From assembly GCA_965200875.1 (NCBI GenBank), contig OZ241456.1, forward strand, positions 1,120,001 to 1,184,000: 64,000 nt of DNA, given 5' to 3'. Both the position numbers and the translations under genes were made by a program. The notes below the pieces were generated by a model, which worked only from the letters and a program-made list of their open reading frames with translations, had not been told where the DNA came from and made no database searches. The DNA is from Bdellovibrionales bacterium. GTDB lineage: Bacteria > Bdellovibrionota > Bdellovibrionia > Bdellovibrionales > UBA1609. Below, one piece after another: positions 54,187-60,980 of this stretch (position 1 is the stretch's first letter; every line of letters begins with the position of its first letter).

Positions 54187-54247
54187 ACAAAACTCTGTCA
54201 GCGAATTATTGAACATCTACAACAATGACACACAAATACTGGAATAG

Positions 54248-54511
54248 ACTTTTTGATTGGACCAACCTTAAAACAGAAGCCACAACTTTTATTGACAAAT
54301 CCGCAAAAGAAAAACGCATGGATCTCCTTTAAATGTGTCAAAGGAGGCCAGGGATTTGATAACTCGTCCTATTTTGTATATTTTAAAACATATCTGGCGA
54401 CTTGATGAATCAAAAGTGAAAGAGCTTTTTACGATAGGTCAGGGTCTTAGTTCCAGTGAGCGAGAGGCATTGATCGGTCGAGCAGTAGATTATATACGGC
54501 GATATGATCCA
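54248..54511 (+). pseudogene. Internal rpn fragment; left copy of a 264-bp direct repeat
   Basis: Matches 60435-60698 with 3 mismatches seen; carries the same KRMDLL-stop junction. Confidence 0.9.
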
Positions 54512-54742
54512 ATAATGGAATCCATATATCATATTTTTAATAAACTTCTTTCCTATTGGAATTTTATTAAAAAACGGTCTAAAAATGGCTTCTTGAAAGG
54601 AAAGAGGCCAGATTCTTTGTTCAATCATTGTACAACCATGTAAAGATTACACTAGTTGTTCTTAACAGTTTCAATTTTTTAACTTTTGAGTATAATCAGT
54701 CGGGACTGAATAATCAAATAAACCCAAACAAGGAGGTTACTA

Positions 54743-55402
54743 ATGAAATTAATAATTACTTTACTATTTTTAAGCTTAGGTGCTTTTAGTTATGGCCAGA
54801 ATGAGGCTGAACAATCTTCTAGAAAGGTGGAAAGTGACACTCCTATTGGTATTATGGCGACTATTTATGATTTGTATGGCCTGTATGACCGGGTCACTGG
54901 CTCTTCTTCATGTAATATAAATAATTATTTTAATGAATATAGATATAAAGAAAGGAAGGATATATTTAAGTGTGATTTGCAAGGAGCGGATATGCGAGAG
55001 GCGAATTTGAGTAATGCTACTTTGAATTTTTCGAATTTAATAGAGGCAAATTTGAGTTTTGCAAATTTACATAAGGCACATGCAGTAGGTTCAAATTTTT
55101 ATAAAGCAGATTTGACTGGTGCAGATTTGCGGGAAACGATATTGGTTGACGCAAATTTTTTAATGGCAGATTTGACTGGGGCGAATATGTCTGGGGCGGA
55201 TTTGCGTTTTTCAGGTTTTAAACTGGCGAATTTAACTGGGGTGAATCTGACTGGGGCGGATTTGCGTTTTGTGTATTTTAGTGACACGAATTTTACTGAT
55301 GTAAATATGAGCAATGCAAAAGTTGATCCAGACTTGGCGACTTTTTTAACTTCACAAGGTATAAGTGGTTTTATTGTTGTTGATGAGGAGGAAGGTAAAT
55401 AA
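54743..55402 (+). CDS. Secreted pentapeptide-repeat protein
   Basis: AAGGAGG SD, signal peptide, two-Cys cap, A(D/N)Lxx repeats, conserved C-terminus AKVDPDLATFLTSQGISGFIVV. Confidence 0.92.
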   Translation: MKLIITLLFLSLGAFSYGQNEAEQSSRKVESDTPIGIMATIYDLYGLYDRVTGSSSCNINNYFNEYRYKERKDIFKCDLQGADMREANLSNATLNFSNLIEANLSFANLHKAHAVGSNFYKADLTGADLRETILVDANFLMADLTGANMSGADLRFSGFKLANLTGVNLTGADLRFVYFSDTNFTDVNMSNAKVDPDLATFLTSQGISGFIVVDEEEGK

Positions 55403-55971
55403 TGAAATTAATAATTGCTTTACTTTTTTTAAGCTTAGGAGCTTTGAGCTATGGCCAGAATGAGGCTACCTGTAATATTGATAATTATCGAGACTATATT
55501 TATACACCCGGAAATCATCAGTGCGATTTGTTCAGGGCGGATTTGACTGGGGCGAATTTACAAGATGCAAATTTTACTGGGGCGAATTTGGGCGGGGCGA
55601 ATCTGACTGGGGCGAATTTGCGAAGGGCGAATTTGTCCAATGCGAATATAGCTGGGGCGATTTTGACCAATGCGGATTTGGAAGGGGCGAATTTGTCCAA
55701 TGCTAGGTTGATAATGGCGAATTTGGTATGGGGTAATTTGACTAATGCGAATATGTACGGGGCGAATTTGATAATGGCGGATTTGACTGGGGCGAATTTG
55801 TCCAATGCTAGTTTGATAATGGCGAATATGTACGGGACGAATTTGTACGATGCGGATTTGACAGGGGTAATTTTAACCTCTGCGAAAGTTAATCCGGCCT
55901 TGGCGACTTATTTAACTTCACAAGGTGTAAGTGGTTTTGTTGTTGTTGAATTTGAGAATTTGAGGAAATAG
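55402..55971 (+). CDS. Secreted pentapeptide-repeat protein
   Basis: Translationally coupled (TAATG); same signal peptide, Cys cap, repeats and C-terminal motif. Confidence 0.92.
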   Translation: MKLIIALLFLSLGALSYGQNEATCNIDNYRDYIYTPGNHQCDLFRADLTGANLQDANFTGANLGGANLTGANLRRANLSNANIAGAILTNADLEGANLSNARLIMANLVWGNLTNANMYGANLIMADLTGANLSNASLIMANMYGTNLYDADLTGVILTSAKVNPALATYLTSQGVSGFVVVEFENLRK

Positions 55972-56033
55972 AAGAATAAACACTTTACTGCCTCTTAGGC
56001 AGTAGAATGTCTACTACTCTCTTTTGGTTTGCG

Positions 56034-56063
56034 AAAAGCCTGTCTACCTCAGACGGGTTTTTT
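56034..56063 (+). terminator. Probable Rho-independent terminator; homologous copies at about 57003-57032, 58064-58093 and 59441-59472
   Basis: aaaagcctgtct-acctc-agacgggtttttt hairpin followed by a T-run after the gene. Confidence 0.75.
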
Positions 56064-56076
56064 CGTTTTCTGGAAA

Positions 56077-56233
56077 GGGAATCATAAGCAACCGGGGTCG
56101 GTTGTATATCGCGAAAGGGGGGTTACGGTTTTCCCCCGTCTCAAAACCCCCTTTTTATGCACTTATTCCCGCGGGAAAAGATGGAGACCCACCCACCGCG
56201 ATATATGATGCCCCCCTTTTCTTTATGATTCCC
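56077..56233. repeat. ~157-bp imperfect palindromic intergenic element, copy A
   Basis: Termini GGGAATCATAA / TTATGATTCCC; inner pairs TATATCGCG/CGCGATATA and TTTTCCC/GGGAAAA. Confidence 0.92.
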
Positions 56234-56340
56234 TATATATTTTTAATAGTCGTGTAAATATTTCACGGGCTTGTTTTTTTATTAAGTGTTTTTCATAAAC
56301 ACCTGTATTATGCAAATAAACCCAAACAAGGAGGTTACTA

Positions 56341-56934
56341 ATGAAATTAATAATTGCTTTATTGTTTTTAAGCTTAGGTGCTTTGAGCTATGGCCAGAAT
56401 GAGGCTAAGGCTACCTGTAATATTGATAATTATCGAGACTATATCTATACGCCAGGAGAGCATAAGTGCGATTTATCAGGGGCAGATTTTACCGATGCGG
56501 ATTTGACTAGGGCGAATTTGACTAGGGCGAATTTGACTAGGGCGAATTTGACTAGGGCGATTTTGACCAGGGCGAATTTGTACGGGGCGAATTTGTACGG
56601 GGCGGATTTGACTAGGGCGATTTTGGTTGAGGCGGATTTGAGATATGCGAATTTGTACGGGGCGAATTTGTACGGGGCGGATTTGACTAGGGCGATTTTG
56701 GTTGAGGCGGATTTGAGATATGCGAATTTGCGAGGGGCAACTTTGCGATGGGCAACTTTGCGATTGGCGAATTTGTACGGGGCGGATTTGTTCATAAGTA
56801 AATTTGGTATTAAAGGGGCATTTTTTTCTGGGGCGAAAGTTGATCGGTTCGCAGCGTATTTTTTATACCCACTAGGTATAAGGGATTTTGTTGTTATTGA
56901 AGACGACCCTGCAGAAAACATAATAAATGAATAA
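56341..56934 (+). CDS. Secreted pentapeptide-repeat protein
   Basis: Same leader and signal peptide; exact 15-bp (ANLTR) and 75-bp internal duplications. Confidence 0.92.
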   Translation: MKLIIALLFLSLGALSYGQNEAKATCNIDNYRDYIYTPGEHKCDLSGADFTDADLTRANLTRANLTRANLTRAILTRANLYGANLYGADLTRAILVEADLRYANLYGANLYGADLTRAILVEADLRYANLRGATLRWATLRLANLYGADLFISKFGIKGAFFSGAKVDRFAAYFLYPLGIRDFVVIEDDPAENIINE

Positions 56935-57044
56935 ACACTTTACTGTCTAGGAGGCAGATAATCTTCTACATTATAATTTTCATAACTTCCTTTGGTTAGA
57001 AGAAGCCTGTTTTAATCTCAGACGGGTTTTTTCGTTTTGAGAAA

Positions 57045-57201
57045 GGGAATCATAATCAACCGGGGTCGGTTGTATATCGCGAAAGGGGGGTTACGGTTTT
57101 CCCCCCGTCTCAAAACCCGCTTTTTATGCACTTATTCCCGCGGGAAAAGATGTGAACCCACCCTCCGCGATAGATGATGCCCCCCTTTTCTTTATGATTC
57201 C
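57045..57201. repeat. Palindromic element, copy B
   Basis: Near-identical to copy A. Confidence 0.92.
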
Positions 57202-57277
57202 ATTTATTTTTTATAGTTTTCGCCGATAATGTAAAAAGATAGGTGGATAATTAATTCACTTTAAAAAGGAGTATTTT

Positions 57278-58029
57278 ATGAAAACTATAATTGCTTTATT
57301 GTTTTTAAGCTTATGTTTTTTAGGTTGTGAGAAAAAAGATAGTGGTTCAAGTGGAGCAACCACCGCCGGTGCTGAAGCTGGCGCGGGATCAACCACCGCC
57401 GGTGCTGAAGCTGGCGCGGGATCAACCACCGCCGGTGCTAACCCTAGTGTAGTGGTTAACACAGCAGGTTCTGAAGCTGGAGTAAATGTTCAATCGGAAG
57501 CGGATGCTCCAGTGTGTAATATCTATAATTACAAAGAGTATATAAAAAAAAACGGAGAGCATAAGTGCGATTTGTCCGGTGCGAATTTGCACAGGGAGAT
57601 TTTGCAAGGCGCGAATTTGCAAGGCGCGAATTTGCAAGGCGCGAATTTGACAGAGGCGGATTTGGGCTATACGAATTTGAACCATGCGAATTTGAGCAAT
57701 GCGAATTTGAGCAATGCGAATCTGTACTGGGCGGATTTGCAAGATGCGAATTTGAGCAATGCGAATTTGAGTAATGCGAATTTGAGAGCGACGGATTTAC
57801 ACAGGTCGGATTTGAGCGGTGCGGATTTGAGCGGTGCGGATTTGAGAAGTGCGAATCTGTACTGGGCGGATTTGCAAGATGCGAATTTGAGCAATGCGAA
57901 TTTGGTTGAAACTATTTTGCGAGGGGTGAATTTCACCGGTGCGAATTTCACCGGTGCGAAAGTTAATCAGAGGTGGCGAATTATTTACTCTCAAAAGGTA
58001 TAGTCGGATATAAAATTGTCGAAGACTGA
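57278..58029 (+). CDS. Pentapeptide-repeat lipoprotein; 1-nt frameshift near 57968 (ORF as read stops at 58003)
   Basis: FLGC lipobox, 33-bp Gly/Ala/Thr linker repeats, Cys cap, ANL repeats; family-like tail EVANYLLSKGIVGYKIVED-stop lies in the shifted frame. Confidence 0.85.
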
Positions 58030-58106
58030 ATTGTATTTATTTTTCATAATTCCATTTGTTGTGAAAAGCCTCTGTATCTCAGACGGGCTTTTTCGTTTTT
58101 AGGAAA

Positions 58107-58261
58107 GGGAATCATAAGCAACCGGGTAGCTGTTATATATCGCTTTTAGGGGTGCACATTTTCCCCCCAGAATAGAGGCGTTTTTATGCAGTTATTTCCC
58201 AGAGGAAAACTGTGACCCACCCACCGCAATATATGATGCCCCCCTTTTCTTTATGATTCCC
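58107..58261. repeat. Palindromic element, copy C (divergent)
   Basis: Same termini; inner arms altered to GGGTGCACATTTTCC / GGAAAACTGTGACCC. Confidence 0.9.
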
Positions 58262-58337
58262 TTTTATTTTTTATAGTTTTCGCCTATAATGTAAAAAGAT
58301 AGGTGGATAATTAATTCACTTTAAAAAGGAGTATTTT

Positions 58338-58592
58338 ATGAAAACTATAATTATTATCTTTTGTCTTTTGTTGTCCATTGGAGCTTATGCTAGTGGGGAC
58401 ATGCAAACATTAAGGGACATGGATGCAATTCAACAGGAATACCAGCGCATACAATCAAATTTAAATGACCTTGATCGTCGGTTTAATCAGGCAATGCTAA
58501 AACTATATGACATGCAAAGTGAAAAAAGAAACCTTGAGCAAAATCTTAATCAATGTATTCAACAGCTTAACCGGCAAAATTCCCAGCAATAA
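58338..58592 (+). CDS. Small secreted Gln-rich coiled-coil protein
   Basis: Upstream leader and SD nearly identical to those of 57278; signal peptide ending AYA. Confidence 0.8.
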   Translation: MKTIIIIFCLLLSIGAYASGDMQTLRDMDAIQQEYQRIQSNLNDLDRRFNQAMLKLYDMQSEKRNLEQNLNQCIQQLNRQNSQQ

Positions 58593-58681
58593 AACTGGCG
58601 TTTTTTGGCACTTATTCCCGCGGGAAAAGATGTGAACCCACCCACCGCGATGTATGATGCCCCCCTTTTCTTTATGATTCC
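58593..58681. repeat. Palindromic element, copy D: right half only
   Basis: ...gcacttattcccgcgggaaaagatgtgaacccacccaccgcgatgtatgatgccccccttttctttatgattcc directly after the stop codon; no left arm or terminator. Confidence 0.9.
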
Positions 58682-58789
58682 TTTTATTTTTTTTACAGGC
58701 GTGTAAAGATTTCACAGTGCTATTTTTTTATTAGTGGTTTTTCATAAACACCTGTATTATGCAAATAAACCCGAAAAAGGAGGTCACTA

Positions 58790-59395
58790 ATGAAATTAAT
58801 AATTACTTTACTTTTTTTAAGCTTAGGTGCTTTGAGCTATGGCCATAGTCCAAAGCCCGCGCCATTTCCTGTTATGCTGTTCCAATTTGATTATTGGCTA
58901 TTCTCTGACTCTTCATGTGATATCGAGAATTATTTTGATGAATATAGATATAAGGAAAGGGCTGATATATTTAAGTGTGATTTGCAAGGAGCGGATTTGC
59001 GAGATGCGAATTTGAGTGATGCTACTTTGAATTTTTCGGATTTGGAAGATGTAATTTTAACCGATGCGAATTTGTACAAGTTACATGCAATAGGATCAAA
59101 GTTTAATAAAGCAGATTTGACTGGTGTAGATTTGCGTGAAGCGGTATTACAAAACGCGCTTTTGCTCTGGGCGAATTTGAGCAATGCGAATATGGCCGGG
59201 GCGAATTTGACTTTTGCGAGTTTTGCAGAGGCGAATTTGAGTGGTGCAAATTTTACAGGTGCGCTTTTGCGTAATGCGTATTTTGGAAATGCGAAATTTA
59301 TTAACGAGGCGATTTTTACCGATGCGAAAGTTGATCCGGATTTGGGTGCTTATTTAACCTCACATGGTGTAAGTGGTTTTATTGTTGTTGAATAA
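58790..59395 (+). CDS. Secreted pentapeptide-repeat protein
   Basis: Closest to 54743 (EYRYKERxDIFKCDLQGAD); conserved C-terminal motif. Confidence 0.92.
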   Translation: MKLIITLLFLSLGALSYGHSPKPAPFPVMLFQFDYWLFSDSSCDIENYFDEYRYKERADIFKCDLQGADLRDANLSDATLNFSDLEDVILTDANLYKLHAIGSKFNKADLTGVDLREAVLQNALLLWANLSNANMAGANLTFASFAEANLSGANFTGALLRNAYFGNAKFINEAIFTDAKVDPDLGAYLTSHGVSGFIVVE

Positions 59396-59485
59396 AATTA
59401 CTCTGATTTTTATATAATTTTCATAATTCCTTTTTTGGTGAAAAGCCTGGCCCATATCCTGTCGGGTTTTTTCGTTTTTAGGAAG

Positions 59486-59642
59486 GGGAATCATAATCAA
59501 CCGGGTGCGGTTGTATATCGCTAAGGGTGGGTGACCATTTTCCCCCCGTCTCAAAACCCCCTTTTTATGCACTTATTCCCGCGGGAAAAGATGGTGACCC
59601 ACCCTAGCGATGTAGATTGCCCACCCTCTCTTTATGATTCCC
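59486..59642. repeat. Palindromic element, copy E, adjacent to the recombinase
   Basis: Same termini; best arm symmetry (AGGGTGGGTGACCAT / ATGGTGACCCACCCT). Confidence 0.92.
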
Positions 59643-59649
59643 ATGATAT

Positions 59650-60178
59650 TTACTCCAGGCCGTTTCTGTCTGCCACCCGCAACACACTTGTTTTGTGCCA
59701 GCGTTTTCCCCACCTTGAGGGTTCGCCTTGTTCGTTTAAAGCATCGGCTATTTCCTGAAATGTCTTTCCCTGACGCCTTAGAAACTTAATGAATGGAATA
59801 ACCCGCTTGTCCTCTCTTTGGGCCTTAGTAAGCTTAGGTGGTGGTGGTGGTTCTTTCTTTGCCTTTTTCTTTTGTTCTTTTACAATAGCTTTGTGTTGTT
59901 TTTTATATTCTCTCCAATACCGGTGTAACCCCCGTCTCACAGCCGGGATATGATACCCAAGCTTTACACCTTGTCTCTTTTTCTCAGCCAGGGCCTCTTT
60001 GGTTCGCTTGGCTATTTGTTCACGCTCCCACCTGGCCATAACACCCATGAACCCGATTGTTTCACGGGTCGCCTCCGGCATATCACAGCACACAAATTTA
60101 ATAGCAGTGTTTTGCAACCAGCCGATAAAAGCCAAGTCACGGCTTAAGCGATCGAGCTTGGCCACAATCAAAGTGCAC
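59650..60178 (-). pseudogene. Serine recombinase (resolvase/invertase-like with C-terminal recombinase-type DNA-binding region), 5'-truncated
   Basis: TLIVAKLDRLSRD, EREQIAKRTKEALAEKKRQGVKLG, GKTFQEIADALNEQG...GKRWHKTSV; N-terminal YxRVS catalytic-Ser motif not found. Confidence 0.88.
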
Positions 60179-60324
60179 AATAAAGATAGCCTAGAACGAT
60201 TTTCTGTAAATACCTCTTTTTTTGACTCTTCCAAAGAAGTTCAGGAGATAAGTCTTCTTTAATTCCTGCCAAAACTCTTTTATTTTATTGACAAAAATCT
60301 TTTTATATTCCATTTTCCAGAGCT

Positions 60325-60980
60325 ATGAAAACAAAAAGAAATTTTTTACATGATCATTTATTCAAAGAAGTCTACTCGCAAACCAAATATTGTGTGGACA
60401 TATTAAGTCTTGTTCTCTCAAAAGAGGAAATGAAACTTTTTGATTGGACCAACCTTAAAACAGAAGCCACAACTTTTATTGACAAATCCGCAAAAGAAAA
60501 ACGCATGGATCTCCTTTAGATGTGTCAAATGAGGCCAGGGATTTGACAACTCGTCCTATTTTGTATATTTTAAAACATATCTGGCGACTTGATGAATCAA
60601 AAGTGAAAGAGCTTTTTACGATAGGTCAGGGTCTTAGTTCCAGTGAGCGAGAGGCATTGATCGGTCGAGCAGTAGATTATATACGGCGATATGATCCAGC
60701 ATTTAATTGGGAGATTGTAAAAGAGATTGAACAAGCCACAGTGAAAGAGGAGGGAAGAATTATGATGCCATTATTAAAATCTTCGTATGATGAAGCTAGG
60801 CAGGAAGGCATGCAACAAGGCCGTCAGGAAGGTATACAGGAAGGCATGCAACAAGGCCGTCAGGAAGGTCAAAAAGAGCTGATTGCAAAATTACTTAAAA
60901 CTGGAGTGGATTTGCAAGCTCTTTGTAAAGGTACAGGACTTTCCGAAGAAGAAATTAAAAAACTTAAAACTGACGACTAA
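60325..60980 (+). pseudogene. Rpn/YhgA-family gene with internal deletion and stop; small C-terminal ORF 60762-60980 intact
   Basis: N-terminal HDHLFKEVYS...FID...RMDLL-stop; C-terminal QEGMQQGRQEG repeats and GTGLSEEEIKKL; GAGGAGG upstream of ATG at 60762. Confidence 0.85.

Follow-up and report, generated by a model that had tools for sequence, protein, structure and literature searches.

What mechanism arranged six secreted-protein genes, all on one strand and separated by copies of a conserved palindrome, beside a serine recombinase gene? The array in question lies in a block of about 7.5 kb between two housekeeping open reading frames (ORFs) of the window, a 64,000-nucleotide stretch of the genome of a Bdellovibrionales bacterium (contig OZ241456.1 of assembly GCA_965200875.1; positions in kb below are genomic). 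An earlier note on this DNA had proposed an integron-like cassette array in which the palindromes serve as recombination sites for the serine recombinase and diversify secreted proteins. We favor another answer, with moderate confidence, namely that the locus belongs to a multigene family of pentapeptide-repeat proteins (PRPs), secreted or lipid-anchored, which expanded in this lineage, is reshuffled through its conserved flanks and carries a gene-family-linked palindromic repeat. The neighboring serine recombinase is a dead fragment, and the array does not appear to be a working integron-like system.

The gene content of the array is as first described, with five PRP genes and one coiled-coil gene in the same orientation, as judged from the ORFs and from matches to the Pfam family Pentapeptide (PF00805; E 1e-24 to 1e-43 for the five). 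A seventh family member on the opposite strand had gone unreported, and the six PRP ORFs of the window score 85-144 bits with PF00805 against a cut-off of 20.2 and are built of tandem A(D/N)LXX repeats. The N-termini in the array resemble Sec or lipoprotein signals (MKLIIALLFLSLGALSYG/QNEA) as read by eye from the sequence. The coiled-coil ORF has no Pfam match above the curated cut-off and has its leader and first codons in common with PRP gene 4 (90% over 113 nt). Every gene downstream of an element is preceded by its own leader of about 90 nt, which includes a GGAGG ribosome-binding site, and a terminator-like hairpin lies after most of these genes. The region is indeed modular, as proposed, but the series of leader, gene, terminator and palindrome is not unbroken, since the stop of gene 1 overlaps the start of gene 2 and no palindrome lies between them.

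The four full palindromes start where they had been placed in the first description. Full copies measure 155-157 bp, begin and end with GGGAATCATAA ... TTATGATTCCC in every case. Over about 160-176 nt the copies share 77-93% identity (E 3e-29 to 2e-70 when searched against the organism's own genome). Nearly all copies have perfect terminal inverted repeats of 10-11 bp, which continue into extended imperfect arms around a variable interior, with a loop of about 40 nt between the arms. The predicted DNA fold of element 2 has an energy of -31.3 kcal/mol (z = -3.66; 1 of 200 shuffled sequences did as well). This fold and the likeness among the copies both go well past what chance would give. RNAalifold applied to ten full copies gave 31 pairs, of which only three show compensatory change, and the covariation term came to +0.83 kcal/mol; these values lend no support to a conserved RNA fold beyond the inverted repeat itself. 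Rfam has no family for the elements or the leaders: at gathering thresholds the whole window contains three tRNAs only, and at E <= 1 there was no match over 55950-59700. A Xer/dif-like site was considered for the termini, which end in CATAA/TTATG, and was rejected for want of an 11-6-11 arrangement.

Each intergenic module has the same order, consisting of a stop codon, about 80 bp with a terminator, the left arm, the loop, the right arm, and about 90 bp of leader with a ribosome-binding site before the next start. Homology runs past both ends of the palindrome, on the left into the terminator (CTCAGACGGGYTTTTTCGTTTT) and on the right into one of two leader types. The hairpin that a terminator scan picked up ahead of element 1 makes a good terminator; the sequence homologous to it precedes elements 2 and 3, and a diverged form (CTGTCGGGTTTTTTCGTTTTT) precedes element 5. 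Because homology continues beyond both palindrome ends, the repeated unit is the intergenic module in its entirety, about 330-370 bp long and centered on the palindrome. Parts of the array recur elsewhere in the genome on a larger scale as well. A deleted Rpn-like gene together with genes 1 and 2 is found again at 1236.4-1238 kb (84% DNA identity; block 1236609-1237968), gene 3 with element 2 at 1238.5-1239.4 kb (81%), and the right arm of element 5 with the 3' end of the recombinase gene at 1326219-1326557 (88.5% over 340 nt).

The element itself is mosaic. In an analysis of block correlations in the alignment of the ten full copies, relatedness among copies falls along the element, with r = 0.46-0.57 for adjacent blocks and r = 0.02 for the outer left against the outer right block. 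The copy at 1326 kb is 100% identical to element 3 in its outer left block and 100% identical to element 5 in its outer right block, and its upstream flank is unlike that of element 3. Because left and right arms assort independently, the palindromes are recombination junctions, which preserves that part of the earlier proposal while parting from it on the recombinase as the driver. Nearest neighbors also switch between the outer and inner halves of a single arm. The block analysis makes exchange between arms evident, a single crossover point not, and such patchy breakpoints would fit homologous exchange or gene conversion better than one crossover site.

Gene order varies in a similar way. 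PRP gene 4 is followed by the coiled-coil gene in the window and by another PRP gene at 1327 kb, and a diverged coiled-coil paralogue lies between two elements at 1510.8-1511.2 kb, in a stretch spanning 1510.6-1511.4 kb, where its neighbors differ from those in the window; the two coiled-coil genes are diverged except for their last 40 nt. The argument that unrelated cargo occupies the same framework is thus upheld for this one gene, at two loci with differing neighbors, but five-sixths of the cargo belongs to a single family. The loci are mosaics of a few secreted-protein families in varied orders. Small deletions may have contributed, too. Comparison with the full copy after the paralogue at 1511 kb leads us to judge that the half element lost its left arm by a deletion between two AAAA runs, and the half element and a partial copy at 704 kb are simple left-arm deletions that still lie behind a stop codon or terminator. 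A non-palindromic module found ahead of family genes at 1250893-1251015 and at 647.6 kb consists of the terminator, about 100 nt of unrelated conserved sequence and the right arm; because this variant carries the right arm without the left, the right arm is probably older, and the palindrome probably arose by its inverted duplication.

The distribution of the element follows the gene family. A profile built from four full window copies was searched with nhmmer against the whole genome (1.87 Mb in two contigs, 94.5% complete), and its 43 matches on both strands resolve into 26 element sites. The window has five of these and the rest of the genome 21, and none is outside the large contig. Ten sites are full copies and 16 are partial, comprising four left arms alone and 12 right arms with the left arm lost or degenerate. 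A motif screen counted 52 ORFs and fragments of the PRP family, 48 of them with seven or more A[D/N][L/F/M] motifs and 32 with the common signal-peptide motif, and a tblastn search with gene 2 gave 79 matches in the same genome. A family ORF is found within 300 bp at 20 of the 26 element sites, against 3.2% of 20,000 random positions.

Position and orientation are also constrained. The left edge of the element lies 31-100 bp after the stop of a co-oriented family gene and the right edge 57-99 bp before a family start. Upstream of each of the ten full copies is a family gene or the coiled-coil gene; at 913 kb, where an unrelated gene seemed to come next, the remains of a gutted PRP gene, still with its usual leader, lie in between. 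Right-arm partials beside a family gene are upstream of its start, and the half element and the 704-kb copy also follow a gene. Solo left arms occur only downstream of family genes and end at differing points. Five of the full palindromes stand at the end of an array and are not followed by an intact family gene, and many family genes, including the seventh member in the window, have neither arm.

The family is older than its palindrome. Among 40 relatives, 14 of them of the same genus, the element was not found, and the only matches were of 26-48 nt (E 1.6e-4 or weaker) in three genomes. In some congeners, in turn, the PRP family has expanded, with 25, 16 and 16 tblastn matches, and the proteins there share its design, with a signal peptide, an N-terminal motif that contains Cys, and a tail ...SQG.SGF.V at the C-terminus; the two PRP loci inspected in one congener, G005, have no flanking inverted repeats. 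Because the family is expanded in congeners in which the element was not found, the palindrome is a recent addition, at the level of the species, to an older family. An empty site could not be defined by comparison, as the 767-aa ORF on the right border of the array is not within 12 kb of the 747-aa ORF on the left border in five congeners. A 20-nt left-arm pattern searched against one genome per prokaryote species gave six single matches in unrelated metagenome-assembled genomes, which were taken as chance on a rough estimate from the size of the collection, and gapped patterns for either arm found nothing in metagenome contigs of the Joint Genome Institute (JGI). Short Logan contigs from three other studies contain arm sequence with 2-5 differences over 82-118 nt, and therefore the element exists beyond this one assembly. 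The sequencing runs that matched numbered eight, from four studies, with no RNA run among those listed. When Logan contigs of four runs were compared at 90% likeness, the joints were indistinguishable from paralogous loci elsewhere in the genome and so were uninformative on active rearrangement.

One way in which these observations may be brought together is that the arrays grew by tandem and segmental duplication and were rearranged by unequal crossing-over and patchy gene conversion between similar modules, and that small deletions trimmed individual copies, for instance where a left arm was lost between short direct runs. The serine recombinase and the Rpn-like genes are decayed relics of mobile elements, copied along with array segments rather than driving them. 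At present the palindrome may act as a recombination hot spot and as a transcriptional boundary between independently expressed genes. Correia-type repeats, which, according to passages in PMC10969869, carry promoters, are cut by RNase III and adjoin gene starts, offer an analogy that makes a role as a boundary or in expression plausible.

Several observations weigh against this reading. Linkage within arms combined with independence between arms is also what crossing-over at the center of the palindrome would produce, and the analysis covers ten copies only. Strong DNA conservation across the whole family is limited to the signal-peptide codons (mean 81%), and flanks plus core reach 59-65% against 55% for random 60-mers; therefore the phrase "conserved flanks" holds for one subfamily only. 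Four partial copies, at 512.7, 558.4, 1015.3 and 1075.4 kb, are away from family genes, those at 558.4 and 1015.3 kb adjoining unrelated genes, and duplication of family flanks alone does not explain them. Conserved termini around a varying interior are the pattern of transposon ends and not of drifting spacers, and the route by which family units reached at least 15 separate loci is not accounted for. Finally, a consensus scan of the region found 19 promoter-like matches against 18.7 in shuffled sequence and nine terminator-like matches against 7.5, and matches at the level of shuffled sequence give a regulatory role no support.

An alternative that we consider unlikely, though the best of those remaining, is that the palindrome is a non-autonomous transposon, that is, a MITE (miniature inverted-repeat transposable element) of the Correia or enterobacterial repetitive intergenic consensus (ERIC) kind, which is mobilized by a transposase in trans and prefers sites downstream of family terminators. 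The form of the element speaks for such an origin. It is about 157 bp long and non-coding, it has perfect terminal inverted repeats and a variable interior, it is present in 26 copies when partials are included, some of these partials adjoin unrelated genes, and it is restricted to one lineage, as many MITEs are. Three left arms also contain an outward sigma-70-like match, TATACA-16-TATGAT, recalling the promoters of Correia elements. The likeness extends to the class in general, which passages in PMC10969869 portray as non-coding imperfect palindromes of about 100-200 bp with conserved inverted termini, present in tens of copies in one lineage, located intergenically beside gene starts or ends, with promoter-like hexamers and the capacity to form DNA or RNA hairpins. 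Yet no consistent target-site duplication or direct repeat was found flanking the copies in the aligned copies and inspected flanks, and full copies occur only in the spacers of one family, the off-family sites all being partial. Distances to the stop and start are constant, and the homology does not break off at either end but runs on through terminator and leader. A cognate insertion sequence was not found, and none of the nhmmer matches to the element or its arms lies at the end of a transposase ORF, though no dedicated search for insertion-sequence ends was made; IS3-like insertion-sequence copies near three element sites carry other ends. The palindrome is MITE-like in form, falls short of a freely transposing element, and is best called a gene-family-linked palindromic repeat.

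A second alternative, which we regard as distinctly unlikely, shifts the mobile unit from the palindrome to the gene. A gene with its leader and terminator, together with the right arm before it and the left arm after it, would be a mobile insertion cassette moved in trans, and full palindromes would be the abutting ends of adjacent units. The earlier note had offered a related option, in which right and left arms are terminal inverted repeats of tandem non-autonomous elements, and its geometry holds up well, since a right arm upstream and a left arm downstream bracket each gene; this suits the layout better than a cassette-capture site does. The spacing of the arms from starts and stops is consistent with such units, a single-gene unit with a right arm before and a left arm after it is present at 1508366-1509176, and the coiled-coil gene is bracketed at two loci. 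Units in tandem and at several loci are seen here, and there are also precedents in which genes lie between inverted repeats: mobile insertion cassettes have passenger genes that include the PRP gene qnrS2, on Aeromonas plasmids (PMC5444012), and genes for transcription activator-like effectors (TALEs) occur in Tn3-like cassettes in Xanthomonas (PMC4337579). What argues against cassettes is that their ends would fall at the variable center of the palindrome, with the most strongly conserved bases lying inward, away from the outer ends of the bracket, the reverse of transposon ends. Moreover, the array-closing palindromes have no intact family gene to belong to, solo left arms end at differing points, many family genes are unbracketed, and no defined outer terminus, duplicated target or matching insertion sequence or transposase end was found.

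A third possibility, that the palindromes are former crossover sites of the adjacent serine recombinase and that the platform is inactive here through decay of the enzyme, seems very improbable. It is the nearest to what the earlier note had claimed, and the gene indeed ends 7 bp from the last element, its stop codon being separated from element 5 by 59643-59649. The gene is present only as a fragment, however. The ORF matches positions 66-144 of the 145 positions of the PF00239 model, and from its residue 20 it aligns to residues 81-247 of a 247-aa homologue in G005 (61% identity), residues 20-170 of which align in turn to residues 5-157 of gamma-delta resolvase. The catalytic serine would be near residue 25 of the homologue, and because the window ORF aligns only from homologue residue 81, the window copy lacks this serine along with about 80 N-terminal residues. 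A search of the whole genome with PF00239 gave three fragments, nothing over model positions 1-36 and no intact copy; by tblastn, the two recombinase pieces outside the window are at 683.6 kb and 1326.1 kb. The recombinase falls in no named equivalog of NCBIfam, the best match being to the Mpi invertase with 43 bits against a cut-off of 272.

Independent assortment of the arms is compatible with such a platform, and palindromic sites would permit both deletion and inversion. The 3' end of the recombinase gene adjoins a palindrome at two loci, in the window and at 1326 kb, but the remaining 24 of the 26 element sites have no adjoining relic, and the two junctions, being 88.5% identical over 340 nt, are one junction that was copied rather than independent associations. 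Switching of nearest neighbors within arms, cargo drawn mostly from one family and a separate leader for each gene also run counter to a common crossover site. Nor does the association hold in relatives, as the 40 genomes offered no co-occurrence of the element with intact recombinase homologues. Five genomes of the same genus have a recombinase copy that is open over about 223-256 aa, that of G009 lacking the first 24 residues, and neither PRP genes nor the terminal motifs occur within about 1.5 kb of any of these five copies.

In the genome closest to ours by its aconitase-like protein (86%), G009, the recombinase is found at nine loci, all truncated at differing 5' points, and at six of the nine its 3' end faces, over 32-737 bp, the 3' end of a tandem array of genes for small Cys-rich lipoproteins; the same tail-to-tail geometry is seen at one locus in G010, where the recombinase homologue sits on the second contig. 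The best copy in G009 begins with the catalytic serine, a 23-bp tandem repeat standing in front of it, and no intact copy was seen. Unit boundaries in the G009 arrays carry pieces of the recombinase 3' end, 25-115 nt long, followed by a short hairpin, and the arrays contain no palindromes. Boundary pieces of such varied length would be expected from repeated duplication with variable breakpoints and not from one crossover site, and the loci within this genome are probably copies of each other. Still, the tail-to-tail arrangement of recombinase relics and secreted-protein arrays recurs in three species and with two cargo families, which our favored reading leaves unexplained. The arrays could be cargo of a mobile element that carried the recombinase; that the 3' flank of the recombinase was once a capture site is less likely. 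We hold very doubtful the broader proposal of a genus-wide capture platform, in which units are added beside the recombinase 3' end, the palindromes of this species are past or present exchange sites and a serine enzyme, in place of an integron integrase, shuffles secreted repertoires.

Known shuffling systems help to place the locus. As in integrons, a co-oriented array has a folded imperfect palindrome after several of its genes. Unlike integrons, however, the window array has no IntI near it: the two tyrosine recombinases found in the whole genome with PF00589 are at 439.8 kb and 1733.5 kb, and the window spans 1120-1184 kb. The palindrome termini also differ from the attC core RYYYAAC / GTTRRRY (consensus as in the earlier note, which was right that integron hallmarks are missing). 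Integron cassettes are mostly promoterless and unrelated, whereas five of the six window genes belong to PF00805 and have their own leaders and terminators, and the element also occurs singly around the genome. Together with the fragmentary enzyme and the sites without a relic, these features lead us to set aside serine-recombinase capture of the integron kind, which falls short on several of the things it predicts. The vsa, vsp and vpma loci of Mycoplasma, the R64 shufflon and the Hin, Gin and Min inversion systems have an intact recombinase, inverted sites of about 20-35 bp and one expression site. The present locus resembles them in that secreted or lipid-anchored proteins with a common 5' end are arrayed with a recombinase at the edge, and departs from them in that the recombinase is a fragment and the six genes (54743-59395) face one direction, each with its own start signals. 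It likewise departs from an active resolvase or invertase system in the loss of the nucleophilic serine and in the lack of any pairing of recombinase and site in the 40 relatives searched.

The preferred reading, that of a reshuffled PRP family with a linked palindromic repeat, presents a bacterium with a small genome that would be assembling and rearranging a large set of secreted repeat proteins. Sets of this kind usually face a host or prey. The gene units would combine a common signal-peptide front end with a palindromic spacer that is specific to the family and serves as a recombination junction. The locus also carries a caution for genome scans, in that a recombinase ORF beside an array punctuated by repeats mimics a cassette platform, while here the recombinase is a relic and the repeat tracks the gene family. 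The one lead that could yield something new is the recurrence, in three species, of recombinase relics paired with secreted-protein arrays.

Other decayed genes frame the array (Table 1). It is bracketed by direct repeats of 264 bp that are 99% identical (54248-54511 and 60435-60698) and lie in two Rpn-like copies, and an exchange between these repeats would delete or amplify the 6.2-kb array. The same deleted Rpn gene precedes the PRP array at 1236.4 kb, the 5' break of the recombinase adjoins an Rpn-like gene both in the window and at 683 kb, and 13 of 31 tblastn matches to Rpn fragments are within 500 bp of PRP genes. Within the right-hand Rpn-like gene, 12-nt tandem repeats at 60792-60863 encode a (Q/E)GxQQGRQEG run, whose repeat number varies among the Rpn copies of the genome.

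Table 1. Positions of the genes, palindromic elements and relics of the window, and of the recombinase-lipoprotein loci of G009.
Feature	Position	Strand	Remarks
Aconitase-like ORF, 747 aa	51943-54186		Left border; identity read by eye
Rpn/YhgA-like (Transposase_31) pseudogene, left copy	54246-54511	+	Internally deleted; tblastn, aa 37-64 and 153-222 of an intact 323-aa copy
PRP gene 1, 219 aa	54743-55402	+	PF00805, E 1.4e-32; signal-peptide-like N-terminus
PRP gene 2, 189 aa	55402-55971	+	PF00805, E 9e-39
Intrinsic-terminator-like hairpin and T run	56033-56063	+	After gene 2; terminator scan, 13 pairs
Element 1	56077-56233		Full copy, 157 bp
PRP gene 3, 197 aa	56341-56934	+	PF00805, E 4.6e-37
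Element 2	57045-57201		Full copy
PRP gene 4, 241 aa	57278-58003	+	PF00805, E 8e-43; lipoprotein-type signal (lipobox FLGC)
Element 3	58107-58261		Full copy, sequence variant; left arm common to the copy at 1326 kb
Signal-peptide-like, coiled-coil-like ORF, 84 aa	58338-58592	+	Between element 3 and half element
Half element	~58597-58681		Right arm only; between coiled-coil gene and PRP gene 5
PRP gene 5, 201 aa	58790-59395	+	PF00805, E 1.7e-24
Element 5	59486-59642		Full copy; last of array, adjoins recombinase ORF
Serine recombinase relic, 194-aa ORF	59650-60234	-	C-terminal half of Resolvase domain and helix-turn-helix region
Rpn/YhgA-like pseudogene, right copy	60325-60980	+	Internally deleted; PF04754; aa 1-64 joined to 152-323; divergent from recombinase relic
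Seventh family member, PRP, 162 aa	61032-61520	-	Palindrome on neither side
Pyruvate,phosphate dikinase-like ORF, 767 aa	61678-63981	-	Right border; identity read by eye
G009 recombinase-lipoprotein locus, tail-to-tail	L077 3987-5931		Lipoprotein C-terminus ...DCDECKECEPID
G009 recombinase-lipoprotein locus, tail-to-tail	L078 3959-8877		Lipoprotein C-terminus ...DCDECKECEPID
G009 recombinase-lipoprotein locus, tail-to-tail	L079 4258-7691		Lipoprotein C-terminus ...DCDECKECEPID

Some smaller observations concern the same genes and their surroundings. In PRP gene 4, 33-nt tandem repeats at 57353-57480 encode the low-complexity linker TTAGAEAGAGS, and their copy number may vary from strain to strain. 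A 236-aa ORF on the large contig (C1 704481-705191) has the lipoprotein signal and TTAG-rich linker of PRP gene 4 in front of a body that is not a PRP, as though its mature domain had been swapped behind a common front end. At one of the G009 loci (L077 3821-3931), four 23-bp tandem repeats (CGCATGTTGCGGGGGACAAAGCT) occupy the place where the N-terminus of the recombinase should be encoded, including the residues before the catalytic serine. Upstream of the recombinase at the same locus (L077 3108-3818) is a zinc-ribbon-like gene of 236 aa. In the genome analyzed here, zinc-ribbon-like genes of this kind (C1 852297-853007 and 1246611-1247321) lie beside a truncated left arm and a PRP gene, as if an intervening recombinase had been deleted at these two loci. 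The second contig (C2, 43,099 bp) contains no element motif and no recombinase match; with a G+C content of 39.7% against 37.0%, it may be a plasmid.

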